Assembly: GCA_036881865.1 (NCBI GenBank)
Contig: JBAJNM010000005.1
Span: 3,868 to 67,867 of the forward strand
DNA: 64,000 nucleotides
Source: Parvularculales bacterium
GTDB taxonomy: Bacteria; Pseudomonadota; Alphaproteobacteria; JAPOUT01; JBAJNM01
Direction: 5' to 3'
This document shows, one piece after another, positions 2,372 through 40,253 of this stretch. Position 1 is the stretch's first letter, and each line of letters opens with the position of its first letter. The notes beneath the pieces are model-generated. The model made no database searches and was not told the origin of the DNA. It was given only the letters and a program-made list of their open reading frames with translations. The translations under genes and the position numbers were made by a program.

Positions 2372-2375
2372 GAGA

Positions 2376-2843: not shown

Positions 2844-2877
2844 GGGTTACCTTATTGTTTATGTTCTTTTGTAGGCC

Positions 2878-3432
2878 TCAATCTGTAATAATATAGGTTA
2901 TGCCTAACAGCGCAAGTGCTACGGCGGGTCCCCATATCCATGGAGAAAGGCCGGATGGCGTTGAAGTGTTGCTATCGGGCGTTGCCTGAGATGACCCTCC
3001 CATCAGCTGATTAAAATTTTCAAAGAAAGCAGTGGACATCTTGGCCGCTGCACTATCTATAAAGCGCTGGCCAATCTGCGCCAGTTTACCACCCACAGTG
3101 GCATTGACCTGATAGGTGAGCAGGGTGTGAGAACCATCCTCAACAAGGCGTATTGTCGCCGAACCCTGAGCAAACCCTGCAGAGCCGCCTTCACCTTTAC
3201 CTGTCAGGGTGTAGCCGTTAGGCGGGTCAATATCAGACAGGCTAACGGTGCCCCGAAATCTGGCATTAACCGGTCCTATTTTTACACGGGCTATGGCTGA
3301 AAATTCCGTATCGCTTGTGCGTGCTACCGATTCAGCGCCCGGGATAATCTGTCGGAGAACCTCAGGGTCATTGAGCGCATCCCAGACAGATTGACGCTCG
3401 GCGGGGAGGCGGTATTCACCGGATAAATCCAT
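2878..3432 (-). CDS. coxG: CoxG-like SRPBCC protein with a C-terminal transmembrane anchor
   Basis: 184-aa ORF. The N-terminal part (MDLSGEYRLPAERQSVWDALNDPEVLRQIIPGAESV...) fits the CoxG/SRPBCC pattern. The hydrophobic tail is LSPWIWGPAVALALLGITYIITD. Confidence 0.8.
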   Translation of the reverse strand: MDLSGEYRLPAERQSVWDALNDPEVLRQIIPGAESVARTSDTEFSAIARVKIGPVNARFRGTVSLSDIDPPNGYTLTGKGEGGSAGFAQGSATIRLVEDGSHTLLTYQVNATVGGKLAQIGQRFIDSAAAKMSTAFFENFNQLMGGSSQATPDSNTSTPSGLSPWIWGPAVALALLGITYIITD

Positions 3433-3450
3433 GAGGAGAGTGCCTTTCTG

Positions 3451-5148
3451 TTAGAGAGCATTAAGCGCAAGGGTAGCGGTTAGCAACAATGCTATAATAA
3501 GCACCATAAAACCAGGCCGCCACGTGCGGGCAAAACTACCGTTAGAGCCAAGTATGGAATGGTAAATAGTCTGATTCAAGGTCTCGACTCTTTTTGTCAC
3601 CCTTTGCGTTATCCCTGCAAGGGAAGCGGAGGTTTGTCCGTAGCGCACACGTCTTATAAACCCGGGGATGAGGCGGCGGTAAAGCCAATCGCTATCCAGA
3701 TTAACTGAGCGCAACTCAGGCGGATAAAGCCCCATCTTCATCAACACACCAAACGCCAGTGCCGAAAAGAGCAAGAGTTGCATCTGGGCTATCACATGGT
3801 CTGTCGTGTAAGGGTGATAATCTACCGGGTAAGGCAGAAGAGCATAAAGAGGGTCAGGAAAAACACCGATAGCTATACATAAGGCAGCCGTTAATCCCAT
3901 AGCCAGTAGCATATTCCATGGGGCTTCCTTGCACCGGATTCCGCTATCGTGGGCGAAGAAAGCAACGTAAGGAATTTTGATGCCCACCTTCATCAATGCG
4001 CCGGCGGAAGCAAACAATAAAACAAACCAGACCCAGACGTAATGATTGTCTGCGGTAGCACTTAAAATCAAACTCTTGGCAATGAAGCCTGAGAATAAAG
4101 GGAAGGCTGAAATAGAGGCGGCTCCTATGATGCAAAACACCATGGTCCAGGGCATGGACTTATAAAGCCCACCAAGTTCCGAACCTTTTGTTGTCCCTGC
4201 CCGAAACAACACCGCGCCCATGCTCATGAACAACAGCGATTTGTAGAGAATATGACAGAAGGCGTGAGCGGCGGTTCCATTGAGGGCGAGGGGAGTGCCG
4301 ATACCGATGCCAACCACCATAAATCCCAACTGATTATTGAGGCTATAGGCGAGTACCCGCCGCAGGTCATTTTCAATGACGGCATAAAAGATAGGAAAGA
4401 GCGCCATGATGGCGCCGATATAAATGAGCGCTTCCGTTCCCGGAAAAGTCCGCGCTAAAGCATAGACGGCCAGTTTGGTTGTGAAGGAAGATAATGTAAC
4501 CGCGCCGGTAGCTGTGCTGGCGGGGTAGGCATCCTGAAGCCAGTTATGGAGCAGGGGAAAGGCACATTTAATACCAAACGCAAAGAAGATGAAAAGAGCA
4601 CCCGGTGCGGCGAGGTCTAACCGGTCAAAAGAGATAGAGCCGGTAGAGCGTAAATAAAGCGCAGCCCCGGCCAACAAAAGAACACCGGAGGTTATTTGTA
4701 TAACAAGATAGCGCAGGCCGGTGTAGTATGCTCCGGGTGTGCGTCGCGCCCATACGAGAAAAGCCGAGGCAACGGCTGTTATCTCCCAGAAGATAAAGAG
4801 CGTTATCAGGTCACCTGCAAAGACAGCCCCAATTGTAGCCCCCGCATAAAGCAGGGTTGTAATATGCTCGACACTATCGCGCACATGCCAGGCGAATATG
4901 ATAGACAAGAACGCCGCAAGAGAGAAAATCAACCCAAACATCTGGCTAAGCGCATCAACCCGCATCAAAATGAGGTTTTGACCCATGAACGGAACGACTC
5001 CATACGTATCCGGCGTTATAGTCCAGAAATGCACCGCCGCGATCACCGGTATGGAGAGCATAAAAAGAGAACGCAGACTCCCTTTGGGAATAAACAGTGT
5101 TAAGGCTGCCCCCAGAATATAAATGAGTGCGGGGTTAAACTCCGTCAT
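3451..5148 (-). CDS. NuoL/MrpA-N-like proton-conducting antiporter subunit with a C-terminal lateral helix and terminal TM
   Basis: 565-aa polytopic ORF of the NuoL/M/N-MrpA/D family. The C-terminus has an amphipathic stretch (RRLIPGFIRRVRYGQTSASLAGITQRVTKRVETLNQTIYHSILG) followed by a TM (FMVLIIALLLTATLALNAL). Confidence 0.8.
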   Translation of the reverse strand: MTEFNPALIYILGAALTLFIPKGSLRSLFMLSIPVIAAVHFWTITPDTYGVVPFMGQNLILMRVDALSQMFGLIFSLAAFLSIIFAWHVRDSVEHITTLLYAGATIGAVFAGDLITLFIFWEITAVASAFLVWARRTPGAYYTGLRYLVIQITSGVLLLAGAALYLRSTGSISFDRLDLAAPGALFIFFAFGIKCAFPLLHNWLQDAYPASTATGAVTLSSFTTKLAVYALARTFPGTEALIYIGAIMALFPIFYAVIENDLRRVLAYSLNNQLGFMVVGIGIGTPLALNGTAAHAFCHILYKSLLFMSMGAVLFRAGTTKGSELGGLYKSMPWTMVFCIIGAASISAFPLFSGFIAKSLILSATADNHYVWVWFVLLFASAGALMKVGIKIPYVAFFAHDSGIRCKEAPWNMLLAMGLTAALCIAIGVFPDPLYALLPYPVDYHPYTTDHVIAQMQLLLFSALAFGVLMKMGLYPPELRSVNLDSDWLYRRLIPGFIRRVRYGQTSASLAGITQRVTKRVETLNQTIYHSILGSNGSFARTWRPGFMVLIIALLLTATLALNAL

Positions 5149-5495
5149 GGGGTGTTATCTCTCAAAGGGTTTTCCGGCTCTTCCGTATCTGTTGTGTATG
5201 GGTGGTAATAATCTTCAGGCCGCTTTAGGATGCGCCGTAAAAATTTGGACACCAGCACCAATAAGATGCACATGATAAAACCGAAAAGGCCGTAAAACCC
5301 TATGACGGATTCTATGGCGTAGTGCCCATGGAGGCTGGCAACATATCCGGCGATGACAAATCCGATGGCAATAACAAACAAACCGTACAGTATACGGTCC
5401 GGTGTTTTTTTATGGTCAATCCACAAGAGTTTGCGGCTCAACCATGGCAGGGAGGATGTATCTTTTGAGGAAGGAGCAGGCGTGTTGTGGGTCAT
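5145..5495 (-). CDS. small two-TM membrane protein of unknown function, embedded in the Mrp cluster
   Basis: 116-aa ORF. Its stop overlaps the next gene's start (ATGA-type 4-nt overlap). Two hydrophobic helices: ILYGLFVIAIGFVIAGYVA and FYGLFGFIMCILLVLVSKF. Confidence 0.6.
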   Translation of the reverse strand: MTHNTPAPSSKDTSSLPWLSRKLLWIDHKKTPDRILYGLFVIAIGFVIAGYVASLHGHYAIESVIGFYGLFGFIMCILLVLVSKFLRRILKRPEDYYHPYTTDTEEPENPLRDNTP

Positions 5496-5503
5496 CTGAA
5501 TGC

Positions 5504-6976
5504 TTATTGCGGAACCGTTTCAGGGATTAAAATAGGGGCGAGAAAAGTTTCAATATCGTGTGCGTAAAAGAAGAGAGCAAAACAGCCAAGAGCGGTTAAG
5601 CACAAAGGGACAACGCAAAACAAAGGTGCTTCTTTTATGCCGGAGGTTTGAAGTTTTTCAGGAGCGGGCATGAAAAACGCTCTTGCCACAGGCATAATAA
5701 GATAAGCGGCGTTGAGCACTGAACTGATGACAAGCACTAAAATAACGACGATATGATAGCCCTCGGCTGCTCCTTCCAGTAGACGCCATTTGACCAGTGC
5801 TCCTCCCAGAGGTGGGATGCCGGTCACGCTAAGAGCACCGATGAAAAATGCCGCAAAAGTAAACGGCATAACCCGCCCAAGGCCCGCGAGCTTGTCGACT
5901 TCGTTTTCATGGGAGGCTACATAGATAGCCCCCGCGCTCATAAATAGAGTGATTTTGCCCATAGCATGCATGGCGATTTGCATAGCTGCTCCTAGAACAG
6001 CAAGAGGACTTGCCAGTGCCATGCCAAGGGTCACATAAGCCAATTGGCTAACGGTGGAATAGGCGAGCCGGGCTTTGAGATTGTTTTTGGTTAAAGCGAT
6101 GAGGGAGGCAATCAGAATAGAGGCGCATGCAACCCAGATCAGCCATTGAGAGGCTCCGGTTTGTTGTAAAAACTCTAACCCAAAAATATAAACACCCACT
6201 TTGAGTATGGTGAAGACACCGGCTTTAACGACGGCTACTGCATGAAGCAGGGCGCTGACAGGTGTTGGGGCTACCATGGCAGACGGTAACCAGCGGTGGA
6301 AGGGCATAAGAGCTGCCTTGCCGATGCCAAAGGCATAAAGGCCAAGTAGCAGAGCTACAAACGGTCCGTCTATGGAGTCATGTAAAATACCTCCATTGGT
6401 GAAGTTCAGCGTGCCGGTAATAAGCCATGTCCAAATAATGGCGACCAGTTGAAAGCAGATACTGGTACCAAGCAGTAAAATAAGATACGTACGCCCCCCC
6501 TTGCGTGCCTCTTCCGTTCCTTTGTGAGTAACAAGAGGCCAGGTCGAAAGGGTTAAGGTTTCGTAAAACAAAAACAACGTCAACATATCAGCAGCAAAGG
6601 CAATCCCCATAGCGCTGCCAATGGCAATAGCAAAGCAAATATAAAAACGCGTCTGGTGAGTTTCATGAGTGCCACGCATGTAACCGATGGAATAAAGAGA
6701 GTTGACAATCCATAAGCCGCTGGCAACAACAGCAAACAACATGCCAAGAGGTTCTACGGAAAACCGCAAAGCAAAATCCGGCGTAAGGGTAACCAGCACA
6801 AGAGATGCTCTTGTTTCGGCAGCGCCGGCATTGAGTAGCCAGAGAACCGTTGCAAACAAGGCGCAGGCCGCAAACAGAGTGATGGCCTCTCGTACGTTGG
6901 GATGTCGGCCCGTAAGGCCGATAAACACAGCAGCCCCCAGAGGGATGCCAAGAGTAAGCCACAAAGCAACAGTCAT
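5504..6976 (-). CDS. mrpD: MrpD/NuoM/N-like antiporter subunit
   Basis: 490-aa polytopic ORF with the family pattern (WLPSAMVAPTPVSALLHAVAVVKAG). It has a 4-nt overlap with the upstream gene. Confidence 0.85.
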   Translation of the reverse strand: MTVALWLTLGIPLGAAVFIGLTGRHPNVREAITLFAACALFATVLWLLNAGAAETRASLVLVTLTPDFALRFSVEPLGMLFAVVASGLWIVNSLYSIGYMRGTHETHQTRFYICFAIAIGSAMGIAFAADMLTLFLFYETLTLSTWPLVTHKGTEEARKGGRTYLILLLGTSICFQLVAIIWTWLITGTLNFTNGGILHDSIDGPFVALLLGLYAFGIGKAALMPFHRWLPSAMVAPTPVSALLHAVAVVKAGVFTILKVGVYIFGLEFLQQTGASQWLIWVACASILIASLIALTKNNLKARLAYSTVSQLAYVTLGMALASPLAVLGAAMQIAMHAMGKITLFMSAGAIYVASHENEVDKLAGLGRVMPFTFAAFFIGALSVTGIPPLGGALVKWRLLEGAAEGYHIVVILVLVISSVLNAAYLIMPVARAFFMPAPEKLQTSGIKEAPLFCVVPLCLTALGCFALFFYAHDIETFLAPILIPETVPQ

Positions 6977-8496
6977 GGTTGAAGGCTTTCAATAGCAGGG
7001 GAGAGGTCTGTCATCAGAGCTACGGTTGCTTGTCGGGCCGCTTCAACAGGAAATGTTCCGTCAAGACCAAACCATATATTAGCGAGGGCAAGAATAAATG
7101 TCGGCATGAGCAAACTGAAAGGTGCTTCCTTTACGGGAGGTGCATTGTCCGGCGCCTGACCAAACCATGCGGCTTCTACAATGCGGCCAACATAACCAAG
7201 GGCTATCAGAGATGATAAGCCAATAGCAAACACCAAAGGCCATGCTCCGCTATTGAGCGTAGCCTCAATCAAATACCATTTGCTGATAAACCCCGCTGTT
7301 AGGGGAACACCAATAAGGCTCAAGCCTCCCACAATAAATGCAGCCATAGTCCAGGGCATAGAACGTCCGGCACCGGAGATGCTTTCCAGGGTTACAACTC
7401 CCAGCCGGTAGACAAGACATCCTGTGGCTAAAAACAAAGTGCCCTTCATGAGAGCGTGATTAAAAAGATGCAAAATAGCCGCTGTGAGGCCCGCAGGTGT
7501 GGCAAGGGCAATGCCAAGCAGGATATAGCCAATTTGTGCAATACTGGAATAAGCCAGCATGCGCTTTATGTTGGTTTGGAAAAAAGCAACGGCTGACATA
7601 ATCACCATGGCGACGATGGCCAATGATCCCAGCATGACATCAAGAGGGATGGTGATAAAAGAAAAGTCAATTCCAAAAACATTAAGGATAAAACGTAGCA
7701 GCACATAAAGGGCGGCTTTTGTTGCGGTAGCCGCAAGAAAGGCGGAGACGGCAGAGGGCGCATAGGCATAAGCATTAGGTAGCCAGCCATGAAGGGGAAA
7801 GATGGCCACTTTAAGTCCTAACCCTATAACAATGAAGGCGAAAGCTACGCTGATTGTACGGGTTTGAGTGGTCTCAGGAATTAAAAGCGCAAGGTCGGTA
7901 AGGTTCAGGGTTCCGGTTACAGCATATAGAAAACCAATACCAATAACGAAAAAAGTAGTCCCTACCGTACCTAATATAAGATAATTATAGGTGGCGGTTA
8001 GAGCTCGTCGGTTATTTTTTTCACCGGTAGCAATCAGGATGTAGGTGGAGAGGGATGAAATCTCTAAAAAAACGAAAATGTTAAAAGCATCTCCCGTGAT
8101 GACAACACCCAGCAAACCCGCCAGACATAAGAGAAAACAAGTATAGAAAAGAGGGCGTTGTCGGGCGGCGATTTCTTGCTCGACACTGCGTCGCGCCCAC
8201 AGAACGATAGGCAGACTTACACCGGAAATTAAGAGCAAGATGAGGGCGTTCATGGCATCTATGCGATATTCAATACCCCAGGGCGGAGCCCACCCGCCCA
8301 TGTCGTAATGAATGGGACCGTTCTCAATGACGGAAATATACAAAAGGATAGAAATAACAAACGCAGCAAAACTGGCAAGGAGAGTAATAAACCACGGTCC
8401 TCGTCCGCGCCCTAGCAGCGCACTAAGAGGCGCGGTAGCAAGGGGAAGCAATACCTGCATGATGGGCAGGTGAGACCATAAAGCCGCGCTTACCAT
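6973..8496 (-). CDS. mrpD: MrpD/NuoM/N-like antiporter subunit
   Basis: 507-aa polytopic ORF containing HGWLPNAYAYAPSAVSAFLAATATKAALY. It overlaps mrpC. Confidence 0.85.
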   Translation of the reverse strand: MVSAALWSHLPIMQVLLPLATAPLSALLGRGRGPWFITLLASFAAFVISILLYISVIENGPIHYDMGGWAPPWGIEYRIDAMNALILLLISGVSLPIVLWARRSVEQEIAARQRPLFYTCFLLCLAGLLGVVITGDAFNIFVFLEISSLSTYILIATGEKNNRRALTATYNYLILGTVGTTFFVIGIGFLYAVTGTLNLTDLALLIPETTQTRTISVAFAFIVIGLGLKVAIFPLHGWLPNAYAYAPSAVSAFLAATATKAALYVLLRFILNVFGIDFSFITIPLDVMLGSLAIVAMVIMSAVAFFQTNIKRMLAYSSIAQIGYILLGIALATPAGLTAAILHLFNHALMKGTLFLATGCLVYRLGVVTLESISGAGRSMPWTMAAFIVGGLSLIGVPLTAGFISKWYLIEATLNSGAWPLVFAIGLSSLIALGYVGRIVEAAWFGQAPDNAPPVKEAPFSLLMPTFILALANIWFGLDGTFPVEAARQATVALMTDLSPAIESLQP

Positions 8497-8921
8497 CGGG
8501 TCGTATCGCGGGCTTCTTCCGCATCCATGGCGTGTTCAATGACCAAAATCTCATCTTCTTCGATGGTGCCGTATTCCTCGCGAATACGTACCACAAGCGC
8601 TAACCCCAGAGCGGTTATTGAAATACCGACAACAATGGCCGTCAGGATCAACACATGGGGCAGGGGATTGGAGTAAATCTCACCTCCATTGTCAGTCAAA
8701 ATAGGTACGGTGCCTCCGCTCACTTTACCCACGGATATGTAAAGCAAAAACATGGAGGTCTGAAATAAAGTAAGTCCGACAATTTTTTTAATAAGATTGC
8801 CATGAGCGGCAATTACATAAATACCGACCATCATCAGAACGATAATCATCCAATAATTGTAATGAGCCATGATATAGGTGATGAGGGTATCTGACATTTC
8901 TATAACCGCCATTTCTACCAT
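8490..8921 (-). CDS. mrpC: MrpC/MnhC (NuoK-like) subunit with an acidic C-terminal extension
   Basis: 143-aa ORF with three TM segments (GLTLFQTSMFLLYISVG..., PLPHVLILTAIVVGISITALGLALV). An alternative start is MSDTLITY at 8897. Confidence 0.8.
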   Translation of the reverse strand: MVEMAVIEMSDTLITYIMAHYNYWMIIVLMMVGIYVIAAHGNLIKKIVGLTLFQTSMFLLYISVGKVSGGTVPILTDNGGEIYSNPLPHVLILTAIVVGISITALGLALVVRIREEYGTIEEDEILVIEHAMDAEEARDTTRW

Positions 8922-9355
8922 TCTTCGTCAGGGAGGTGACGTGTGCGTGCGGCGAAAAACAGGTAACAGGCAATCATCACGGCTGTGACAGTTATGCCAA
9001 CGCCGAGTTCTATGATCAGAATACCAATATGCTGACCGGCCTGGGGGTTGGTAGCCAGAACGGAATAATCTAAAAATGTGCCTCCTGCTATCATGGATGC
9101 AACACCAACGGCCATATAAAGCAGAACACCGCAAGAGGCTACGGCCACGATTAGCCATTGAGGCATGAGCCGTTGAGCATTTTCAATACCGAAAATCAGC
9201 CCATAGAGGATAAACCCGGCGCCAAAAATGACACCGGCCTGAAAGCCACCGCCCGGTCCATAATCGCCGTGGAATTGTACATAAAGAGCAAACAGCAGAA
9301 TGGGGGGAATGAGAAGCTTAGCAACCACCCTGAGGATAAGATGATGGTGCATCAT
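8915..9355 (-). CDS. mrpB: MrpB/MnhB-domain subunit
   Basis: 146-aa ORF with HGDYGPGGGFQAGVIFGAGFILY, the MnhB hallmark. Confidence 0.8.
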   Translation of the reverse strand: MMHHHLILRVVAKLLIPPILLFALYVQFHGDYGPGGGFQAGVIFGAGFILYGLIFGIENAQRLMPQWLIVAVASCGVLLYMAVGVASMIAGGTFLDYSVLATNPQAGQHIGILIIELGVGITVTAVMIACYLFFAARTRHLPDEEW

Positions 9356-9927
9356 GCATCTCCCGTGTCTACGTCGGGGGATGTTGGAGAATGGTGTCTT
9401 TCCGGACGTCTTTTTTGTCCGAGAAGCATAATGACGCCTATACCGGCGGTGAATATCACAACCACCTCTCCCAGAGTGTCATAGCCACGGTAACTGGCAA
9501 GGACAGCGGTAACGAGATTGGGTATGGCGATATCGTCAGGTGTGTGGGCAATATAGTCGGCACCTACGTGCAGTTGTGCCGGAGCATTAGGGTCGCCGAA
9601 AGCAGGAATGTCCAGACTACCATAAATCAGAGCAGCCCCCAGAACCGTGACAATCACAAGGGCCGCCAGAGGAAAACGCTGTGGTTGTTTCTCACGGTGA
9701 ACGGTTAGTGCTATGGCGGCGAGCATAAGGATGGTTGAAATGCCGGCTCCCACGGCAGCTTCGGTAAAGGCTACATCGGCAGCGTCCAGCGATAACAACA
9801 ACAAAGCCACCAGCAGACTATACGTGCCGGTAAGCATGGTGACAGTAAACAAATTCCGTGTTCGCACAATCGCAAGGGCGGTGATTAAAAGTAGTGCAAA
9901 AAGGGCAATGTCAATGAGTAGGGGCAT
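9352..9927 (-). CDS. MbhD/DUF4040-like subunit (corresponds to the C-terminal part of MrpA)
   Basis: 191-aa membrane ORF with LDAADVAFTEAAVGAGISTILMLAA and VTAVLASYRGYDTLGEVVVIF patterns seen in the MrpA C-terminus/MbhD-E. It has a 4-nt overlap with mrpB. Confidence 0.65.
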   Translation of the reverse strand: MPLLIDIALFALLLITALAIVRTRNLFTVTMLTGTYSLLVALLLLSLDAADVAFTEAAVGAGISTILMLAAIALTVHREKQPQRFPLAALVIVTVLGAALIYGSLDIPAFGDPNAPAQLHVGADYIAHTPDDIAIPNLVTAVLASYRGYDTLGEVVVIFTAGIGVIMLLGQKRRPERHHSPTSPDVDTGDA

Positions 9928-9931
9928 GAGT

Positions 9932-10273
9932 CTATGAACTACGTTTTGGGCCGGAGGTGTTGTGGGGTTCCGGGCGCAATCCGGTCACATAGGCTGCATT
10001 GGCAATAGCGTGTGCGGCTGTAGGGGAGGTGAAGAATGTAATCAGTCCGATTAGCAGCAGTTTTACGGCATCAAGACTGAAGCCCGCCTGGGTGATAAGA
10101 CCCAGAATAAGGAGTTCTGCGCCGAGGGTATCGGTTATGCCTGCGCCGTGAAGACGGGCATAAAATCCGGGTAGACGAATGAGTCCCAGCGCACCGGTGA
10201 AAATAAAAAAAGCGCCGGCCAACATAAGTCCCCAACCGGCTGCATGCACAAAGAGCAGGAGCATTGAGGTCAT
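9932..10273 (-). CDS. mrpG: MrpG/MnhG subunit
   Basis: 113-aa ORF with GALGLIRLPGFYARLHGAGITDTLGA and TSPTAAHAIANAAY. Confidence 0.85.
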   Translation of the reverse strand: MTSMLLLFVHAAGWGLMLAGAFFIFTGALGLIRLPGFYARLHGAGITDTLGAELLILGLITQAGFSLDAVKLLLIGLITFFTSPTAAHAIANAAYVTGLRPEPHNTSGPKRSS

Positions 10274-32109: not shown

Positions 32110-33210
32110 TTGGCAAACGAACGGACAACAAACCTTTATACACGCACCGAAGAAGTGGTCGTTTGGTTAAGGAAGAATCTATTCTCTACGTGGTACAACG
32201 CCGTTCTTTCAATTGTGTCCGTGTATGTCATCTGGGTTGTCGCCAGCGGCTTCGTGAACTGGGCTTTTATTAACGCTGTCGGGTTCGATGGTGACCGGGA
32301 CACTTGTGTAATGTACGCCAAAGGCGCTTGTTGGCCGTTTATTGAAGCGAAGTGGAGCCAGATTATTTACGGGCGTTATCCGGAGATGGAACGCTGGCGG
32401 GTAGATGTAACATTTCTGATTGGCGCTCTGGCTGTGGTGCCTATGCTTATGCCGTCCATGCCGTTTAAGCGGGCCAATGCGGTGTTTTTGCTTGTTCCTT
32501 ACCCGATCCTCGGGTTTTTTCTCCTCAACGGAGGGGCATTTGGCCTTGAGCCTGTAGAGACTCCGTTATGGGGAGGTTTGCTGGTTACCCTTGTTGTGGC
32601 AATTGTCGGGATTGTGGCTTCTTTGCCAATTGGTATTCTGCTGGCTCTTGGGCGGCGCTCCGAAATGCCGGTCATTCGCATTTTGTGTGTGGGCTTCATA
32701 GAGTTCTGGCGGGGTGTACCTTTGATTACGGTGTTGTTCATGGCGAGTGTCATGTTACCGCTGTTTTTGCCTCAGGGCGTGACCTTTGACAAACTCCTGC
32801 GCTGTCTGATTGGCATCGCATTGTTTTCATCGGCCTATATGGCGGAGGTCGTCAGGGGAGGGTTGCAGTCAATACCGCGCGGTCAATATGAGGCGGCTCA
32901 GGCGTTGGGGCTCGGATATTGGAAGATGATGGGGTTGATTGTTTTGCCTCAGGCCTTGAAACTGGTCATTCCGGGCATTGTGAATACGTTTATCGGCCTG
33001 TTCAAAGATACGACGCTGGTTTTGATCATCGGATTGTTTGATTTGCTGGGTATTGTGCAACTTAGTTTTTCTGACCCAAGCTGGTCTACGCCTCAGACAG
33101 CGGCAACCGGATATGCTGTGGTCGGGATTATATTCTGGATATTTTGCTACGGAATGTCGCGCTATTCCCAGTTTATGGAGCGTTACCTTCATACCGGACA
33201 TAAACGGTAA
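32110..33210 (+). CDS. aapM: amino-acid ABC transporter permease
   Basis: 366-aa polytopic ORF (TTG start) with [37 protein letters not shown]. Confidence 0.88.
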
Positions 33211-33229
33211 AGTAAGAGAGGATAATAAA

Positions 33230-34021
33230 GTGACGGATAATTCGATGAATCAAGATTCAGCACAGGACGGCATGAAAATATCTGATGAGGTTGCTGTCCG
33301 GATGGTCGGCATGAACAAATGGTATGAAGATTTTCATGTGCTCAAAGATATCAATTTGACGATTCATACCGGCGAAAGAATTGTGGTTTGCGGTCCTTCC
33401 GGTTCCGGAAAGTCCACGCTGGTTAGGTGCATTAACAGGCTTGAGGAGCATCAGGAAGGGCAGATTATTGTCGAGGGTATTGAACTCACTGACGATGTTA
33501 AAAAAATTGATGAGATCCGGAGAGATACCGGCATGTGCTTCCAGCATTTTAATCTGTTCCCTCACCTGACAACGCTAGAGAATTGCACTTTAGCTCCTAT
33601 CTGGGTTCACAAGATGCCCAAGAAGGAAGCTGAGGAAGTTGCCATGCAGTTTTTAGAGCGGGTCAAGATTCCCGATAAGGCGGATAAATACCCGGGTCAA
33701 TTATCCGGAGGCCAACAGCAGCGGGTTGCCATTGCGCGGGCTTTGTGTATGAAACCCCGTATTATGCTGTTTGATGAACCCACATCGGCTCTTGATCCGG
33801 AGATGATTAAGGAAGTGCTGGACGTGATGGTCTCTCTGGCTGAGGGAGGCATGACGATGGTTTGCGTGACCCATGAGATGGGTTTTGCGCGGCAGGTCGC
33901 CAACCGTGTTATTTTCATGGATGGGGGACAGATTGTAGAAGAAAACGCACCGGAACCGTTTTTCACCAATCCTCAAAATGAGCGCACTAAACTCTTTTTA
34001 AGCCAGATTTTAAATCATTAA
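33230..34021 (+). CDS. aapP: amino-acid ABC transporter ATP-binding protein
   Basis: The track ORF is 33038..34021. I trimmed it to GTG at 33230 after AGAGAGGA (or ATG 33245). Walker A is GPSGSGKST, the signature is LSGGQQQR, and Walker B is [12 protein letters not shown]. Confidence 0.9.
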
Positions 34022-34629
34022 TTTGCTAGGTTTCGTTGCTTCTTTTCTATCCATTTTGAAGCTTTAATAATCTGCATAAGACGTCCCACGGACGATGCCG
34101 CCGGTGTTCGTTCAATAGATCGATAGAGTTCATCAAGGATCTCATTGAGCGTGAGAATTTTGACAGGGTTACCGCGCATGGCTGTTTTAAAAGTATTGTA
34201 ATTTTCCCATTTCTCTTTATTTGCATTCGGCTTAAGTGTTGTTACGGCTGTAATGTAAGTGAATTTTTTTGACTCTGTAATTTCTTCAACTTTATCTAGG
34301 AAGGCTGATGTCCATTTTTCTTTGACGAGTTCTCGGAAGCCTTTCCATGTTTCGCGCCCACTCTCTTTTTTCCCTTCTTCAATCTTTTTTATTATGTTGT
34401 CCGGATCGAAGCCACCTTGCCAGCTTTTACAGCTAACAACAATAACGCGCTCTGATCCTTTTAACGTCGGGTTAAATCCTATGACGTCAATATCGCTGGC
34501 AACTCTATCTTGCTTTGATTCATATTCCGGATGTGAAGGATCAGGTTTGAATTTGACATTGTGTCTGGTGAAATAGCCTTTATGTTGCAGATATTCATCT
34601 ACGAGCTGTTCTAAAATATCCTCTTTCAT
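34018..34629 (-). CDS. PD-(D/E)XK-like nuclease-fold protein with a Lys/Glu-rich helical C-terminal half; function unknown
   Basis: 203-aa ORF in an AT-rich stretch. Its N-terminus is [14 protein letters not shown]...[11 protein letters not shown]...[10 protein letters not shown], a helix-E ... D ... (S)xK arrangement reminiscent of restriction-endonuclease-like cores. Confidence 0.45.
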
Positions 34630-34632
34630 GAC

Positions 34633-35139
34633 TTAGTTCTCTTCTAAGTAATATTCATAATTTAACGACGGGAGTTTTTCTTGTTGCGCAAGACTAAAAC
34701 ATTCTTCCTCCCCAACTTGCAAAAAACCAATTTTTTTCAATAGTTTTGCAGAAGCAATATTTTCACTAAGCACGCAGGCTTTTAATTTTCTAAATGTCGT
34801 ATTGGTTTTTAGATAGTCAAGAAAACCTCTAACCGCCTCCGTTGCGTAACCTTGTCCCCAATAATCGACTCCCAGCCAATATCCGAGTTCATAAAAACCG
34901 TTATCTCTGGGCGTCAAACCGATGCCGCCTACCAGATTATTGTTTAAGAAAATATTTAATGAAAACTTATCATTGTTAACAATCTCTAGCCATTTATCAG
35001 CATCGTCTAACGTATAAGGATAGGGAACACTGCTTAAGTTTTTTGAAACCCTGAAATCACCAATCAGGTTAACCAACCGTTCTTTATCGGCATGACCTAA
35101 TTTTTTTAAAACCAGTCTGTCCGTTCTAATTTCAGCCAT
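34633..35139 (-). CDS. GNAT-family N-acetyltransferase (RimJ/RimL-like)
   Basis: 168-aa ORF with GYWLGVDYWGQGYATEAVRGFLDY...NIASAKLLKKIGF. AT-rich. Confidence 0.8.
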   Translation of the reverse strand: MAEIRTDRLVLKKLGHADKERLVNLIGDFRVSKNLSSVPYPYTLDDADKWLEIVNNDKFSLNIFLNNNLVGGIGLTPRDNGFYELGYWLGVDYWGQGYATEAVRGFLDYLKTNTTFRKLKACVLSENIASAKLLKKIGFLQVGEEECFSLAQQEKLPSLNYEYYLEEN

Positions 35140-35140
35140 T

Positions 35141-35689
35141 TTATAATCTATTCGCAGTTGGCGACGGCCAGTCGGCGGGCTGTTTTAATATGCCGTTTTC
35201 CTGTTCATAGGGTGTGAAACCGCAGCGTTGATAGAGGGGCAGGGCATGGGGATGGTCCAGAGTGCAGGTTTGCACAATCAGGCGGTTGATTTCCTGAGAC
35301 CAGGCAAGGTTAATGGCCTCATGAAGAAGATAAACCCCCAACCCCTCGCCGATTTGTTCGGGCATCAGCCCCAGCATGGAAAGTTCGGCCTGAGGGAACA
35401 GGCGAAAATCAAGCTCTGCAAATCCGGCCGGTACGCCATTGTGGTGCAACACATATATTTTGACATCATCATTGTGAATAATGGCGGTGAGTTGCTCGTC
35501 CGGCATACGCCAGCGGTCCACCCAATAGTAATCTTTACCGATTGTATCGTAGAGGTAGCGGTAGAAGTGTACGGGCGGTTTTTCGGCCCGGATGAGAGCT
35601 ACGGTGCCGGAGAGGGTATGAGAGGGGCTTTTGGCCGGATGCGCCAGCATTTCCAGATAGGTGATGGTAATTTCGTGGGGGATATCCAT
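35141..35689 (-). CDS. GNAT-family acetyltransferase
   Basis: 182-aa ORF with LMPEQIGEGLGVYLLHEAINLAW...LPLYQRCGFTP. Confidence 0.7.
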   Translation of the reverse strand: MDIPHEITITYLEMLAHPAKSPSHTLSGTVALIRAEKPPVHFYRYLYDTIGKDYYWVDRWRMPDEQLTAIIHNDDVKIYVLHHNGVPAGFAELDFRLFPQAELSMLGLMPEQIGEGLGVYLLHEAINLAWSQEINRLIVQTCTLDHPHALPLYQRCGFTPYEQENGILKQPADWPSPTANRL

Positions 35690-35696
35690 GAGGATT

Positions 35697-36698
35697 TTAT
35701 GTCAGCCAGTCGGGGTAGGGCAGGTTCTTTTCTTTTAGGAATGTTGGGTTAAACATTTTGCTTTGATAGCGCGTTCCGTAATCGCACAAGACGGTGACGA
35801 TGGTATGTCCGGGTCCCATTTGGCGGGCAAGGCGTATAGCTCCCGCAATATTAATGCCGCTGGAGCCACCCAGACAAAGCCCTTCTTCTTTCAGCAGACC
35901 AAAAACAATAGGCAGCGCTTCTTCATCGGGAATCTGGAAGGCGTCATCTATGGGGGCGTCTTCCAGATTGGCAGTGACGCGTCCCTGACCGATCCCTTCG
36001 GTAATGGATGTGCCTTCTGATTTCAATTCGCCATGTTTGTAATAATGATAGAGCGCCGCTCCCATGGGGTCGGCAGCGGCGGCGACGATTGACGGGCTTT
36101 TCGACTTCAAAGCCATAGCGACCCCTGCCAGCGTGCCGCCGGTGCCGATGGCGCAAGTAAAGCCATCTACTTTGCCTTCCGTTTGCTGCCAGATTTCAGG
36201 ACCGGTAGTCTCAACATGGGCCTTGCGGTTGGCTATGTTGTCAAACTGGTTCGCCCAGATCGCCCCGTTGGGTTCTTTTTCGTTGATCTCTTCGGCCAGA
36301 CGGCCTGAATATTTGACGTAATTATTGGGGTCTTTATAAGGAACGGCCGGTACTTCAATGAGTTCTGCACCGGCAAGACGTAGCATATCCTTTTTTTCCT
36401 GCGATTGAGTGTCGGGAATAACAATCACGGTTCGATACCCCAAACTGTTGTTGACCAGCGCCAGGCCAATACCGGTATTCCCTGCCGTTCCTTCAACAAC
36501 GACGCCGCCTTCGCGCAATTGACCCTTCTTGATGGCATCCTGCACAATATAAAGGGCGGCGCGGTCTTTGACGGACTGTCCGGGGTTCATGAACTCGGCT
36601 TTGCCGAGAATCTCACATCCGGTTTCTTCCGAGGCGCGCCGCAGGCGAATAAGTGGCGTATTGCCAATAGTTTCTATGAGATTATTACGAATTTCCAT
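35697..36698 (-). CDS. cysK: cysteine synthase / CBS-like PLP enzyme (no CBS-pair domain)
   Basis: 333-aa ORF with GNTPLIRL, NPGQSVKDRAAL (PLP lysine), EGTAGNTGIGLA and GTGGTLAG. Confidence 0.85.
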   Translation of the reverse strand: MEIRNNLIETIGNTPLIRLRRASEETGCEILGKAEFMNPGQSVKDRAALYIVQDAIKKGQLREGGVVVEGTAGNTGIGLALVNNSLGYRTVIVIPDTQSQEKKDMLRLAGAELIEVPAVPYKDPNNYVKYSGRLAEEINEKEPNGAIWANQFDNIANRKAHVETTGPEIWQQTEGKVDGFTCAIGTGGTLAGVAMALKSKSPSIVAAAADPMGAALYHYYKHGELKSEGTSITEGIGQGRVTANLEDAPIDDAFQIPDEEALPIVFGLLKEEGLCLGGSSGINIAGAIRLARQMGPGHTIVTVLCDYGTRYQSKMFNPTFLKEKNLPYPDWLT

Positions 36699-36762
36699 AC
36701 CATAACTTTACAGTGCCGGGCTATATTGTTCAAGATTACAGACAGTATGAAAGAGATACACT

Positions 36763-37101
36763 ATGGAAAAAGACGCAGTAATTTATATGGTGCAATCATG
36801 GGTTAAGCCGGGCGAGGGTGAGGCTTACCTGCGTTGGCTTGAGGACAAGCACATGAAAGACGTGCTTAACGTTAAGGGCATGATGTGGGCACGCAAGGTG
36901 ATGCTGGAACAAAAAGATGAAGCGCGGGGATGGGATGGTGTTCTTTTAATATACGGTGCCGCTTCCCGTTCTGCACTGGAGAGTTATTTGAATAGCCCTG
37001 AGCGGGATAAATTTTGGGACGAACTAAAGGCGTTTACCGATGTTCACTATTCAACACGGGTTTATGGGCAGGTAGATTTTGTCCTTAATGATATTCGGTG
37101 A
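36763..37101 (+). CDS. small cytosolic protein, possibly dimeric alpha/beta-barrel (DUF4286/EthD-like)
   Basis: 112-aa ORF. The family guess rests only on size and the pattern YMVQSWVKPGEGEAYLRWLEDKHMKDVL. Confidence 0.4.
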   Translation: MEKDAVIYMVQSWVKPGEGEAYLRWLEDKHMKDVLNVKGMMWARKVMLEQKDEARGWDGVLLIYGAASRSALESYLNSPERDKFWDELKAFTDVHYSTRVYGQVDFVLNDIR

Positions 37102-37116
37102 GTGCGGTGATGGGAA

Positions 37117-37839
37117 CTAGAAATTTCCATAGATGGAACTACGAACGTTATCGAATGACTTAAGTTTTTGTGAAAACTGTTTTATGCGTTTAATAAGATC
37201 GTCTGATGGATTGAGGGTAATGAACCATCTTTCCGAGGGTACTTTTCTACCAGTTTCAGTAGGGATGATCGTTAAAATCTTCAAAGTGATTGGATTGAAG
37301 AGATAAAAGTGTTTATTGATATCGAAGATTTGCTCATCATAATTTTTGTGAGCTGGGAATTTGATACAAACTAAAGGTCTTTTATTGGCTGCAAGAATTT
37401 CAATCTCTCTTTTTAATGCATGTTGTTTTGAAGGTTTTTTAACACCGATATCGGGGCCAGTATCGGGGTCTATAAATACCATGTCACATCTAGACAAAGT
37501 TGTTACCATATTCTGAGCCCAAGCGTCTCGACTTGCCGATTTCAAAGGCTTAGGAACTGCTGAGTAATGAAAAACGGTACTCTTATTCCAGATTTCTGCT
37601 TTCTGAAGCTTGTTTATGCTTCGTTCAGGAAGTTTTGCAAGATGATCAAATAATTCGGGATCTAAGGCCCTATAATCCTTTTGTTGCAGGTATTCCTGAT
37701 GTTTCCCGTCCGCAGGGTCATCACGACAGTCGACGTAATACCAGCCAACTCCCAGTTTCAATTCTGTTCCATGAACTAATGCCCGTAAAAACGAGAATTT
37801 AAAAAAATCGGAAATATCTCCTGCGTATTGGTCTCTCAT
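37117..37839 (-). CDS. hypothetical protein with RlmJ-like motif layout but a DPDT in place of DPPY
   Basis: 240-aa ORF, AT-rich. YAGDISDFFKFSFLRAL compares with RlmJ FHAGNHADVLKH, MVFIDPDTG with LILIDPPYE, and WFITLNPSD with MIVINPPW. These comparisons are from memory. Confidence 0.5.
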   Translation of the reverse strand: MRDQYAGDISDFFKFSFLRALVHGTELKLGVGWYYVDCRDDPADGKHQEYLQQKDYRALDPELFDHLAKLPERSINKLQKAEIWNKSTVFHYSAVPKPLKSASRDAWAQNMVTTLSRCDMVFIDPDTGPDIGVKKPSKQHALKREIEILAANKRPLVCIKFPAHKNYDEQIFDINKHFYLFNPITLKILTIIPTETGRKVPSERWFITLNPSDDLIKRIKQFSQKLKSFDNVRSSIYGNF

Positions 37840-37879
37840 GCAAAGCTTCTTTCGGGTAATCCTGTTTGACTATTTGGAA

Positions 37880-38401
37880 TTATCCTCCAACAAGCCTCCT
37901 ACATTCTGCACGAGCAGATTGCACTTCTTTAATTTTTTTTGGATTATGTTTGATATTCAGGGATGGTTTATATTTACGGATTAATTCTCTTTCAAGGTCT
38001 TCCGTTTCACTTTTGGCAACTAAAAGATAAGTAAAAAGGCAGTTCTCGCGTATCCATGCTGTGAGTATATCTTCATTTTTGAAACTCTATTTAGAGGGTT
38101 TTGCTGATCGTAAAGTTAACTTTAGCTGTAAATATTCACGTAAAACAGCACCAACAGAACGCCGGAATGTATCGCTTGTTGAGTGAGGCCCTGTAAAATG
38201 AGTTTCCAATCGATCATATAAACCTGAGGCCCCCATTCCGATGTAGATCATCTTGTCATCACGACCTAGAATCGGTTGCCACTCTTCCGGCAAAATATCG
38301 ATACCCAGCAGAAATATAGCATATACTCCAGCATCTTTTGGTAATGCCATGCCATCAGACCATTTCTTTGGTGGTGTATTAAATGGGAACTCTTTCATCA
38401 T
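37880..38401 (-). pseudogene. GIY-YIG nuclease-family gene interrupted by one in-frame TAG (38089-38087)
   Basis: The track ORF 38087..38422 ends ...RSAKPSK*. Hand translation shows the same frame continuing as SFKNEDILTAWIRENCLFTYLLVAKSETEDLERELIRKYKPSLNIKHNPKKIKEVQSARAECRRLVGG* (TAA at 37882-37880). GVYAIF and IYIGM lie before the stop, and the conserved Glu/LN part after it. The start ATG at 38401 overlaps the upstream TGA (TGATG). Confidence 0.7.
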
Positions 38402-39381
38402 CAAACACCTTTCGCAAACCACACAATATCCTCACCATGGGGATGTGTGTGCGCCAGAATATTGTTATTATAAGATAGCACAAACCTTCCTCTAGGAACT
38501 TCTAAGGCCGGATCAAGTAAGTCGGGGAATATCAGGCTGTGCTCCTGCAAAATCCAGTTCACCGGTAGGTCGTTCATGAGGGCCCTAAACCGTTTAACCT
38601 CTTTTGGCGGCATGTAATTCATGACAGCCGAATGATAGATGACGATATCGGCCTCTTTTGGTGCCGCCGAGATAGACGCTTCCAGATGATCCAGTAAATT
38701 TCCTCCGGTAATTTCCAGCCTGTGTTGCCGTGCCTCGGCAATCGCGGTTTGCAATCTGTGCAACCGGTCTGTCTGTCCGGGCCATACAAGAGTTTCCAGC
38801 CAGTCGCATGACTCTTTATCAGATAAATCTATCGGGTTCAGGTCAATCCCTTTCCGCCAGACAATATTGAGGTTTTTATTGATTTCCGGCATTGGCCCGT
38901 CAAAACCGCACGTGATGAGGGGTGATTGGCCGGAGGCAGAGTTTGGCACAATTTTTGTGCCGTCAAAACTATATTGATAGTAGTCGGGAATCATGCACAG
39001 TCCGGCAGAGGCACCCACCTCAATGAGGGCAATCTTTTCTTGTTTCATTTGCGATAAGGCCAGAAATAGTGCACCGCAACGTGCCGGTTCATTGGTCTGG
39101 GTGATTTTTGTGTTGACCACCTGTGTTATGGCCTCACGGTTTTCATGAATGATCCGCTCAAATTCGTGTAAAGAGTTTGGAACGCCATAAACTTTCCGGA
39201 CAGCGGCAAAAATCAGGTTGGGTTGTCTTTTGTTGTCATGAAAATTGGAAATAAACTGAAGAAGTATATCGCTTTCTGTCACCCAACGGGCCAGATCAAA
39301 ATATGCCTGACACCTGCCTTTTGCCTCGTATTTCGCAAAGTTCAGATATCGTTTTTTCAGTTTTTCAATATCGTCTTCCAT
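38401..39381 (-). CDS. DUF2332-like protein (SAM-methyltransferase-like fold suspected)
   Basis: 326-aa ORF with RQPNLIFAAVRKVYG...NEPARCGALFLAL...IALIEVGASAGLCMIPDYYQYSF, which matches my recollection of the DUF2332 consensus. Not verified. Confidence 0.55.
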   Translation of the reverse strand: MEDDIEKLKKRYLNFAKYEAKGRCQAYFDLARWVTESDILLQFISNFHDNKRQPNLIFAAVRKVYGVPNSLHEFERIIHENREAITQVVNTKITQTNEPARCGALFLALSQMKQEKIALIEVGASAGLCMIPDYYQYSFDGTKIVPNSASGQSPLITCGFDGPMPEINKNLNIVWRKGIDLNPIDLSDKESCDWLETLVWPGQTDRLHRLQTAIAEARQHRLEITGGNLLDHLEASISAAPKEADIVIYHSAVMNYMPPKEVKRFRALMNDLPVNWILQEHSLIFPDLLDPALEVPRGRFVLSYNNNILAHTHPHGEDIVWFAKGV

Positions 39382-39528
39382 CGATTGCTTTCACGTTCTT
39401 GGTGTTTCAATCGTGGATAGTATAACCTTGCCCCCGGCAATTCCTTACTTGGAAATAAGGGACAAAAAGGCAGAGAAAGTAATAGGAAGACTAGCTGAAT
39501 AAATGCCGGGAAGGGTCAAAATGAAAAA

Positions 39529-39604
39529 TGGCTCCCCGAGCCGGACTCGAACCAGCGACCCAGCGGTTAACAGCCGCTTGCTCTACCAACTGAGCTATCG
39601 GGGA
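39529..39604 (-). tRNA. tRNA-Asn (anticodon GTT)
   Basis: The reverse complement is tccccgatagctcagttggtagagcaagcggctgttaaccgctgggtcgctggttcgagtccggctcggggagcca. It gives a full cloverleaf with loop ctgttaa and encoded CCA. Confidence 0.95.
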
Positions 39605-39748
39605 TTAAGCCTGTCTTTAGGATTAGCAAAATCACGGAGCCAATACCAGCCTGAAATAGCCCGGTCATGGCTTCAGAGCAACTATAGGGCTAATTTGGAT
39701 CGGCCAAAATCAGGCGGAATTGGGGGAGGTGAGGACCGGGAGGGGTTG

Positions 39749-39823
39749 TGGAGGCCACGCCCGGAATCGAACCGGGATAAACGGATTTGCAGTCCGCTGC
39801 GTCAACCATTCCGCCACGTGGCC
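39749..39823 (-). tRNA. tRNA-Cys (anticodon GCA)
   Basis: The reverse complement is ggccacgtggcggaatggttgacgcagcggactgcaaatccgtttatcccggttcgattccgggcgtggcctcca. Acceptor ggccacg/cgtggcc, loop ctgcaaa. Confidence 0.93.
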
Positions 39824-39948
39824 TACAATCTCTAGGATTTGCCGTATCATTCCTGCGATTACCAAGAATTGCAATAGCCTTTATAGGGGGTTATGTACAA
39901 CATCAATTCCAACTATCTTTTTTGTGATTTAAAGTTGATTAGGCTCCT

Positions 39949-39968
39949 ATACTATTCTGCAATAGTAT
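39949..39968. promoter_or_regulatory. perfect 8-bp inverted repeat ATACTATT-ctgc-AATAGTAT upstream of the small-peptide gene
   Basis: Read directly. It lies about 100 nt upstream of ATG 40065. Confidence 0.3.
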
Positions 39969-40064
39969 CATAATTGATGTGCGCCGAATCTTCCGGAATT
40001 TTTCTGGAGGTTAAGAAAAAGGAGTATGATTCGGAAGTTAACAAACGTTTTGAGGAGATCTAAA

Positions 40065-40253
40065 ATGAAAACACTAACAACTCTTTCAATTGCTCTTGTG
40101 ATGGCCTTGGCTCTTAGCGGGCCGGTGTTTTATACATCTACTCCCGCTCATGCCCAGTCGTGGGCTGATTATAACTTCTGCTGGATTTGGGGATGTGGGG
40201 ATGAAGACCTCGGCCCCGCCTCTGACGGCGACGGTGGCGTATTTGGAGAATAA
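40065..40253 (+). CDS. small secreted peptide precursor (62 aa; predicted 32-aa mature peptide with a CX4C motif)
   Basis: GAGGAG sits 7 nt before ATG 40065. The signal peptide is MKTLTTLSIALVMALALSGPVFYTSTPAHA, then QSWADYNFCWIWGCGDEDLGPASDGDGGVFGE. A terminator hairpin follows. Confidence 0.6.
   Translation: MKTLTTLSIALVMALALSGPVFYTSTPAHAQSWADYNFCWIWGCGDEDLGPASDGDGGVFGE

Follow-up and report, generated by a model that had tools for sequence, protein, structure and literature searches.

Three consecutive minus-strand reading frames occupy a 2.3-kb stretch of a genomic contig from a Parvularculales bacterium (assembly GCA_036881865.1, contig JBAJNM010000005.1). The window analyzed covers 64,000 nucleotides (nt), from contig position 3,868 to 67,867, and positions below are those of the window unless another locus is named. 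In reading order the frames are a DUF2332 gene (39381 to 38401; 326 amino acids [aa], TGA stop at 38403 to 38401), a GIY_YIG_2 nuclease pseudogene (38401 to 37880; 174 codons including the final TAA at 37882 to 37880, with 173 sense positions and one internal amber codon), and an intact gene of a 240-aa family with a predicted RlmJ-type fold (37839 to 37117). The ATG of the nuclease frame (38401 to 38399) shares one base with the TGA of DUF2332, giving TGATG, and a spacer of 40 nt (37879 to 37840) separates the nuclease stop from the start of the 240-aa gene. A tRNA-Asn(GTT) gene on the minus strand (39529 to 39604; ARAGORN and Rfam) precedes the start of DUF2332 by 147 nt, and a tRNA-Cys gene (39749 to 39823) lies beyond it. 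A preliminary description of this DNA had noted three minus-strand genes in a row, the TGATG overlap, a gap of about 40 nt before the last gene, and the tRNA-Asn neighbor, and the open reading frame (ORF) and tRNA coordinates agree with it on each point.

The three genes differ in composition. The GC content is 0.465 for DUF2332, 0.391 for the nuclease, and 0.382 for the 240-aa gene, with 0.498 for the window as a whole; the GC content at third codon positions (GC3) is 0.495, 0.299, and 0.344, respectively, against 0.50 to 0.60 in neighboring genes and 0.55 to 0.60 in the flanking PALP and GNAT genes. A 300-nt composition profile reveals a low-GC block (GC, 0.35 to 0.44) from approximately 37100 to approximately 38450 that spans both of the downstream genes, the nuclease and the 240-aa one. 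Only these two genes have a clearly foreign composition, the GC3 of DUF2332 being near the genome norm, and the term AT-rich, applied earlier to all three, fits those two and not DUF2332. The low-GC block is probably a horizontally acquired insert. No integrase-like ORF was recognized between 31.5 and 42 kb, where only six ORFs were run against Pfam, and no promoter-like or terminator-like match lies inside the 40-nt spacer, with regional scans at chance level. A tRNA-Asn island bounded by att repeats was considered and rejected, as no copy of the tRNA-Asn sequence or of its 3' end was found within 33000 to 40200.

The read-through translation of the middle frame matches the Pfam family GIY_YIG_2 (PF20815) over profile positions 1 to 152 of 153 (85.4 bits, with a cutoff of 22.4; E = 5e-24), and the match crosses the amber codon (residues 25 to 165). 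Two close homologues, with 61 to 62% identity on both sides of the stop, are intact, at 167 and 205 aa. The premature TAG is codon 105 (38089 to 38087). The window DNA reads CCC TCT AAA TAG AGT TTC AAA AAT GAA at this point, and that of the homologue in locus L006 reads TCC CAG TAT AGT TTT AAA AAT GAA; the TAG aligns with the Tyr of Q-Y-S-F-K-N-E, encoded by TAT in L006, and across 40 family members the position is conserved as Tyr or another aromatic amino acid. The stop cuts the half with the GVY, YIG, and R elements from the conserved W116, the catalytic E137, and P146/N149 (PxLN). Truncation would leave a product of 104 aa, no in-frame restart codon was seen after the TAG, and no single polypeptide from this gene holds the complete GIY_YIG_2 catalytic core. 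The orphaned C-terminal part (37880 to 38086), which comprises 68 sense codons and the TAA, has kept its open frame; its identity to L006 is 60% over 78 aa (tblastx), and it is about as similar to its homologues as the N-terminal part is. The lesion is therefore either young or a sequencing error. As judged from the alignment, the nuclease appears to have been inactivated by a one-base change that turned a Tyr codon into TAG. Pyrrolysine insertion and programmed read-through were considered and set aside, as the homologues have Tyr and the four tRNAs in the window have ordinary anticodons.

A profile search of 1.84 billion representatives recovered 1233 GIY_YIG_2-type clusters, mostly solitary proteins of 170 to 195 aa. 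Some chains contain two or three GIY_YIG_2 domains in tandem (P0170, with 562 aa; P0172; and P0181). A GIY_YIG_2 gene was found beside relaxase and MobC genes on a Paenarthrobacter plasmid, and plasmid pLW3 of Rhodococcus sp. LW-XY12 (locus L099, 4140 to 5465) encodes a 441-aa fusion of DUF7662, DUF6884, and GIY_YIG_2, adjoining type I restriction-modification genes and two integrase genes. By its domain composition, this fusion would tie DUF6884 functionally to GIY_YIG_2 nucleases. DUF6884 has a YaaA-like DNA-binding fold with a proposed role in base flipping (PMC11701544). An apparent synteny between L006 and the window, each with a PALP gene beside the GIY-YIG gene, was rejected when tblastx matched the GIY-YIG gene alone.

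The first gene encodes a full-length DUF2332 protein (PF10094; 212.8 bits; E = 1.2e-62; profile positions 2 to 334 of 334) with 3163 homologues. Its AlphaFold2 (AF2) model has a predicted local distance difference test (pLDDT) score of 94.5, and Foldseek placed it nearest to PPM1/LCMT (E = 3e-4; probability, 0.99), followed by COMT and KsgA; the template modeling (TM) scores to solved structures are low, at 0.24 to 0.31. An E-V-G-A-S-A-G loop resembling motif I is present in the alignment, and a DPPY-type motif is absent. On the model, the protein resembles the class I S-adenosylmethionine (SAM) methyltransferase fold and is nearest to carboxyl- and O-methyltransferases that act on proteins or small molecules, not to DNA methyltransferases. 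The likeness to LCMT-type O-methyltransferases comprises the full length of the protein, the motif I-like loop, and the class I fold, but with TM scores this low the core fold alone is held in common. The five nearest relatives of the gene (47 to 67% identity) are solitary and stand amid metabolic and housekeeping genes, with no GIY-YIG or 240-aa-family gene near any of them. The DUF2332 gene of the window is a resident stand-alone gene outside the nuclease module and, like the GIY_YIG_2 gene, an unremarkable member of an established family.

The 240-aa protein has no match in Pfam (even at E <= 1), NCBIfam, or PADLOC, and its match in PHROGs is at chance level (E = 0.064). A word-indexed search yielded 46 homologues, the best with 58% identity. 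Thirty residues are invariant in an alignment of 29 sequences. The invariant N terminus of the family is M-R-D-Q-Y-A-G-D-x-S-D-x-x-K (MRDQYAGDISD...K14 in the window), and a second motif, with the consensus DPDNG, reads DPDTG in the window (residues 124 to 128); D124-P-D126 and F161-P162 are invariant. When the AF2 model (pLDDT, 90.6; predicted TM score, 0.90) was searched against the PDB with Foldseek, the top 14 matches were all Escherichia coli RlmJ or its Legionella homologue LPL1258 (probability, 1.00; E = 7e-7 to 2e-5; TM score, 0.50 to 0.59). Generic methyltransferases ranked far below RlmJ, and no good match was found among viral structures. The protein is predicted to have an RlmJ-type fold, with a Rossmann-like core, an inserted helical subdomain, and an N-terminal motif X tail. 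The preliminary description had correctly named the DUF2332-like protein, its SAM-methyltransferase-like fold, and the amber-interrupted GIY-YIG nuclease; the third name, RlmJ-like, is upheld by the fold and finds no support in sequence profiles.

RlmJ, the 23S rRNA m6A2030 methyltransferase (PF04378; PDB 4BLV and 6QE5), has the catalytic residues Y4, H6, K18, and D164, the last within 164-DPPY-167, and the SAM ligands H42, E118, D143/G144/F145, S100, and H19 (PMC3814359). At the N terminus, YAGDISDFFKF of the window aligns with HAGNHADVLKH of RlmJ; D15 and K18 of RlmJ appear to be retained, and D11 and K14 are invariant in the 240-aa family. At motif IV, IDPDTG aligns with IDPPYE, and D164 appears to be retained as D124. 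Y4, H6, H19, and PP(Y/F) of RlmJ are not retained, and the DPP(Y/F) form of motif IV is absent from the family. The sole blocks that hhalign aligned between the family and RlmJ, motif IV in one case and motif X with motif I in the other, are statistically nonsignificant. Shared with RlmJ are the AG..D..K motif X tail and helix, the helical insert, the Asp that ends strand 4, and an (F/Y)P after strand 5. The 240-aa family differs in having DPD(N/T)G instead of DPPY, in having a single short strand (residues 89 to 91 of the model) to connect the helical insert with strand 4, a region that contains motifs II and III in RlmJ (PMC3814359), and in a genomic context that is mobile or defense related rather than housekeeping. 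In the model, the cofactor-binding half (the motif II/III region) looks reduced. In its aligned motifs, the family looks like one that keeps the Lys (motif X)/Asp (motif IV) pair with which RlmJ and Dam-type N6-adenine methyltransferases hold the flipped target base, and the protein may be a nucleic acid base-directed enzyme with altered catalytic and cofactor sites. Longer family members (288 to 416 aa) were considered as domain fusions and rejected; they have no extra Pfam domain and are probably products of miscalled starts. The family is undescribed in Pfam, NCBIfam, PADLOC, PHROGs, and the literature searched, in which no mention of DUF2332, "RlmJ-like," or PDC-M57 was found.

A search of the genomic contexts of the three families did not recover them together. 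For the 240-aa family, 90 loci were fetched, of which 86 are distinct. In the 86 loci searched with them, neither the DUF2332 model nor a narrow GIY_YIG_2 model had a match up to 6 kb on either side of the 240-aa gene, and a broad GIY_YIG_2 model of 40 sequences had none in all 90. The two closest GIY_YIG_2 relatives stand in unrelated contexts and lack both partners; the test centered on GIY-YIG genes rests on these two metagenome contigs and a few plasmids, and no further locus came from scanning with GIY-YIG alignments, twice in metagenomes and once in viral sequences. None of the three window proteins matched PADLOC-DB v2 (E <= 1). As the three families were never adjacent in the loci tested, a three-gene cassette is refuted, and a nuclease and a methyltransferase forming a conserved unit, as in restriction-modification, were not found. 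The suggestion in the preliminary description of a restriction-modification or other self/nonself discrimination system thus fails: the three families do not form a conserved cassette around the distinct 240-aa loci or the DUF2332 and GIY_YIG_2 relatives, and of the checks it proposed, that for intact GIY-YIG versions was positive (the 167- and 205-aa homologues), and profile searches placed DUF2332 and the nuclease in Pfam families, the 240-aa protein in none, and none of the three in PADLOC. A restriction-modification or defense annotation is not appropriate for the stretch.

The 240-aa family itself is widespread. A scan of one genome per species confirmed at least 544 members, distributed over Alphaproteobacteria, Acidobacteriota, Chloroflexota, Verrucomicrobia, Cyanobacteria, Firmicutes, the candidate phyla radiation, and one archaeon. 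None was found on viral contigs, and 2 of 72,556 plasmid records carry a member (E <= 1e-5). A Pfam scan of two genes on each side of the 240-aa gene revealed no dominant partner, with at most 4 of 132 neighbors in any one family: GmrSD, HNH, DUF6884, ankyrin, TraD, and DUF3363 occurred four times each, and Mrr and relaxase three times each. These neighbors are a mixture of defense and mobile types.

In 17 of the 86 loci, the 240-aa gene is operonic with defense genes (UzuA, HTH-GIY-YIG, or PDC-M57). A helix-turn-helix (HTH)-GIY-YIG gene is the next gene, with an overlap of 1 to 4 nt, in seven distinct loci. In seven others the same HTH is fused to DUF6884, again overlapping the 240-aa gene (4 to 13 nt), and a gene for a 252-aa protein follows; in two further loci HTH-DUF6884 stands just downstream, with ORF calls that give no clean overlap. 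In three loci a UzuA-type GIY-YIG gene (276 to 323 aa) ends 13 to 16 nt upstream of the 240-aa gene. PADLOC identified partners as UzuA (Uzume; 9e-83), PDC-M57A (3e-33), and PDC-M57B (8e-87). The 252-aa protein had been considered a GIY_YIG_2 relative from a GVY...VG...R pattern, a candidate that was dropped, as BLASTP and Pfam gave nothing and PADLOC returned PDC-M57B. The HTH-GIY-YIG domain is remotely related to GIY_YIG_2 (hhalign, 82.6%; E = 1e-5). Four GIY-YIG subfamilies or more were found within 1.1 kb of the 240-aa family: type A, UzuA type, DUF4357 type (locus L001), and GIY_YIG_2 (the window). Operonic association of the family with Uzume and PDC-M57-type genes appears to be unreported.

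Locus L001 contains the closest homologue of the 240-aa gene of the window; a GIY-YIG-DUF4357 gene and then a PD-(D/E)xK-like gene lie upstream, the latter 31 nt away. The 249-aa protein at 5221 to 5970 of L001 has a D...E-L-K pattern and weak matches to Cas4 and PDC-S11, and from this pattern it is probably a PD-(D/E)xK nuclease. The GIY-YIG-DUF4357 gene is part of a restriction-modification cluster of type I/IIG, and the 240-aa gene is followed by a gene with ankyrin repeats. In L092, which like L001 belongs to the clade of the window protein, a UzuA-like gene lies 1 kb from the 240-aa gene. Four loci (L018, L025, L027, and L047, at about 2100 to 10000 in each) have a conserved block, found in Xanthobacteraceae, Agrobacterium, Brucella, and Breoghania, with the order TraA-type relaxase (minus strand), TraD-domain gene, 240-aa gene, HTH-DUF6884 (PDC-M57A), PDC-M57B, and a GmrSD-type or GIY-YIG gene. 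The block, which several genera share, places defense cargo next to the region of the transfer origin on a conjugative element.

Other arrangements also occur. In L013 and L016 (6847 to 8337), from alphaproteobacterial metagenome-assembled genomes (MAGs), two HNH endonuclease genes follow the 240-aa gene, one of them with homing-endonuclease-associated repeats, with genes for a serine recombinase and a relaxase-like DUF3363 protein upstream. A frameshift splits HTH-GIY-YIG beside an intact 240-aa gene in L051 (6720 to 7297), from a Hyphomicrobiales MAG, and in L068 (4464 to 5217), from Gluconacetobacter azotocaptans DSM 13594, the 240-aa gene itself is frameshifted. Ensifer plasmid pCTYH.Ch1_3 has the 240-aa gene between two annotated GIY-YIG genes, and this copy has no PADLOC match. 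On plasmid pRL8 of Rhizobium johnstonii 3841 (NC_008383.1; L104, 4170 to 5648), a "hypothetical protein" of 492 aa belongs to the UzuA type of GIY-YIG proteins; its C terminus is frameshifted and reads through into the HTH-GIY-YIG gene, and the 240-aa gene that lies between the two in Ensifer is missing. On pRspN1341a, an unrelated membrane protein gene stands in place of the 240-aa gene.

Nucleases paired with a methyltransferase-fold partner are known, for example in type II restriction-modification systems with a GIY-YIG endonuclease, of the Eco29kI and Hpy188I type. Like them, the window has a nuclease beside a methyltransferase-fold protein, and the nuclease has decayed with the partner intact, as happens with orphan methyltransferases; the 240-aa partner differs from theirs in lacking (N/D)PP(Y/F) and part of the canonical SAM-binding half, and the pairing is facultative. 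GIY-YIG domains also occur in the anti-phage systems Uzume (UzuA), PD-T4-3, and PD-lambda-1 (bioRxiv 10.1101/2024.10.26.620412). The window nuclease resembles such single-gene systems in being small, free-standing, and situated in a variable or defense-type locus, and the UzuA-type gene of Uzume is the direct operon neighbor of the 240-aa family in the three loci described above; the window nuclease, however, is a pseudogene of Pfam GIY_YIG_2, a family that is not known to act in defense, and it matches no PADLOC model. As for PDC-M57, which comprises a DUF6884 protein and M57B, the 240-aa gene lies immediately upstream of PDC-M57A in nine loci (with overlap in seven) and PDC-M57B follows, and the DUF6884 domain is the one fused to GIY_YIG_2 in the Rhodococcus plasmid protein. 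Against this likeness, M57A and M57B are both missing from the window, PDC-M57 as defined does not include the 240-aa family, and PDC-M57 is itself a computational candidate only.

The reading that we favor, and hold to be rather probable, is that the stretch is a mosaic of a resident DUF2332 gene and a low-GC import of approximately 1.3 kb, the import containing a dead GIY_YIG_2 gene and an orphan RlmJ-fold gene and representing a decayed fragment of a nuclease-plus-accessory operon. The import would have brought two defense-island-type genes downstream of DUF2332, and the 1-nt TGATG overlap would be a local accident of insertion or of cotranscription. The single-domain GIY_YIG_2 endonuclease would then have lost, recently, the half of its catalytic core with the Glu and Asn residues, when the Tyr codon became TAG. 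Elsewhere, the RlmJ-fold gene would serve as an optional accessory in defense nuclease operons (UzuA, HTH-GIY-YIG, PDC-M57, and HNH) on plasmids, conjugative elements, and islands; the pair in the window would be a decayed remnant in which the RlmJ-fold gene survives as an orphan after the death of the nuclease. The gene anatomy, the family and fold assignments, the absence of a conserved cassette, the nonsense mutation, the foreign composition, and the recurrent neighbors in operons are direct observations; we infer that the two imported genes arrived together, that the RlmJ-fold protein acts on nucleic acid, and that it modulates, or protects against, a neighboring nuclease.

Several observations weigh against this reading. 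Among the loci tested, the pair of GIY_YIG_2 and the 240-aa gene occurs in this window alone. The closest relatives of the two genes come from one metagenome, where they lie on three contigs with kilobases of flank and no partner. No flanking direct repeat was found around the low-GC block in a repeat search, leaving the import with no insertion scar to define it, and the TAG could be an error of sequencing or assembly. Sequence homology of the 240-aa family to RlmJ is not significant, either in a PDB profile search or by hhalign against E. coli RlmJ (probability, 0.2 to 0.3%). About 80% of the 240-aa-family loci have no recognizable nuclease partner. HTH-GIY-YIG was found on 28 plasmids, versus the 2 plasmid records for the 240-aa family, and on Rhizobium pRL8 UzuA abuts the HTH-GIY-YIG gene with no 240-aa gene between them. 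As these nucleases are found without the 240-aa gene, they are independent of its product, and the 240-aa protein is at most a facultative accessory. Shared hot spots could also explain why nucleases and the 240-aa gene are adjacent.

This last thought, carried further, gives the rival account that survives best: the three genes would be functionally unrelated, and GIY_YIG_2 and the 240-aa gene would have arrived independently in a variable spot downstream of tRNA-Asn and tRNA-Cys, with the 240-aa family and nucleases having no more in common than their defense-island and mobile-element habitats. We regard it as possible, if somewhat unlikely. It accommodates the lack of linkage between the nearest homologues of the two genes, the absence of a second such pair in the 90 loci, the frequency of the partner nucleases without a 240-aa gene, and the diversity of neighbor families, none above 4 of 132; a second low-GC islet 2 kb away, described below, likewise marks the region as a hot spot. 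What chance arrival leaves unaccounted for is the tight same-strand geometry in 17 loci, with overlaps of 1 to 13 nt or gaps of 13 to 16 nt, the presence of at least four GIY-YIG subfamilies within 1.1 kb of the 240-aa family, and the remote relationship of the type A GIY-YIG domain to GIY_YIG_2. In the window itself, two genes of nearly equal and unusual GC3 lie 40 nt apart on one strand, which also speaks against chance arrival.

In a broader proposal, the 240-aa family would be a widespread new class of RlmJ-fold enzymes that flip a DNA base and chemically mark or sense it, modification partners of noncanonical chemistry that provide optional self-protection or control to several unrelated defense nucleases (UzuA, HTH-GIY-YIG, GIY_YIG_2, PDC-M57, and HNH), and the window copy would be the orphan of a dead nuclease. 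In this full form it is doubtful and rather unlikely to hold.

The position of the 240-aa gene directly after a TraD-domain gene and beside a TraA relaxase in Agrobacterium, Brucella, Xanthobacteraceae, and Breoghania suggests another role, that of an anti-defense or establishment gene of conjugative elements, which would act on incoming DNA, modifying or shielding it like the orphan methyltransferases of plasmid leading regions, and of which the window copy would be a mobile-element remnant. The gene is often solitary and occurs in many contexts, as such a role would allow, and the Paenarthrobacter GIY_YIG_2 gene is similarly placed beside relaxase and MobC. However, few plasmid records and no viral contig among those searched carry the family, the 240-aa gene of the relaxase-linked loci heads an operon of candidate defense genes (PDC-M57 and GmrSD), and no relaxase, integrase, or transfer gene was seen near the window copy (31.5 to 42 kb). 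We consider this role improbable. Most improbable of all is the three-gene restriction-modification or self/nonself system with two flanking methyltransferases that control a GIY-YIG restriction nuclease: both flanking proteins do have methyltransferase-type folds, the stop/start overlap does suggest cotranslation of DUF2332 and the nuclease, and GIY-YIG restriction enzymes are already a class, but the three families co-occur in no context examined, DUF2332 is O-methyltransferase-like and unlike the other two genes in composition, and neither flanking protein has an (N/D)PP(Y/F) motif or a PADLOC match.

For the window, then, the outcome is mostly deflationary, a chance juxtaposition of a decayed import with a DUF2332 gene of housekeeping type. 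The orphan RlmJ-fold family is a lead worth following, being widespread, having an altered catalytic motif, and standing repeatedly first in operons with Uzume or PDC-M57 genes on conjugative elements. If its members prove to be modifying or regulatory partners, some "single-gene" nuclease defenses would gain an optional second component, and a new nucleic acid modification activity might emerge. The LCMT-like fold assignment offers a concrete starting hypothesis for the large DUF2332 family, with its more than 3000 members.

Two further features of the region were noted. A 75-aa ORF on the plus strand (40026 to 40253), between tRNA-Cys and the pcm-tolC genes, has a signal-peptide-like N terminus and a C-terminal tail ending in ...NFCWIWGCGDEDLGPASDGDGG; it is either spurious or a candidate for a small peptide that is secreted or modified. 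The second, separate low-GC islet (33950 to 35150; GC, 0.35 to 0.40) contains two minus-strand ORFs, at 34018 to 34629 and 34633 to 35139. A 203-aa protein of the islet has a D-x-D...S-C-K pattern and weak NERD and Mrr_cat matches (E of about 0.03), by which it is probably a PD-(D/E)xK nuclease, and a low-GC GNAT acetyltransferase gene (GC3, 0.33) lies 4 nt downstream of its gene.

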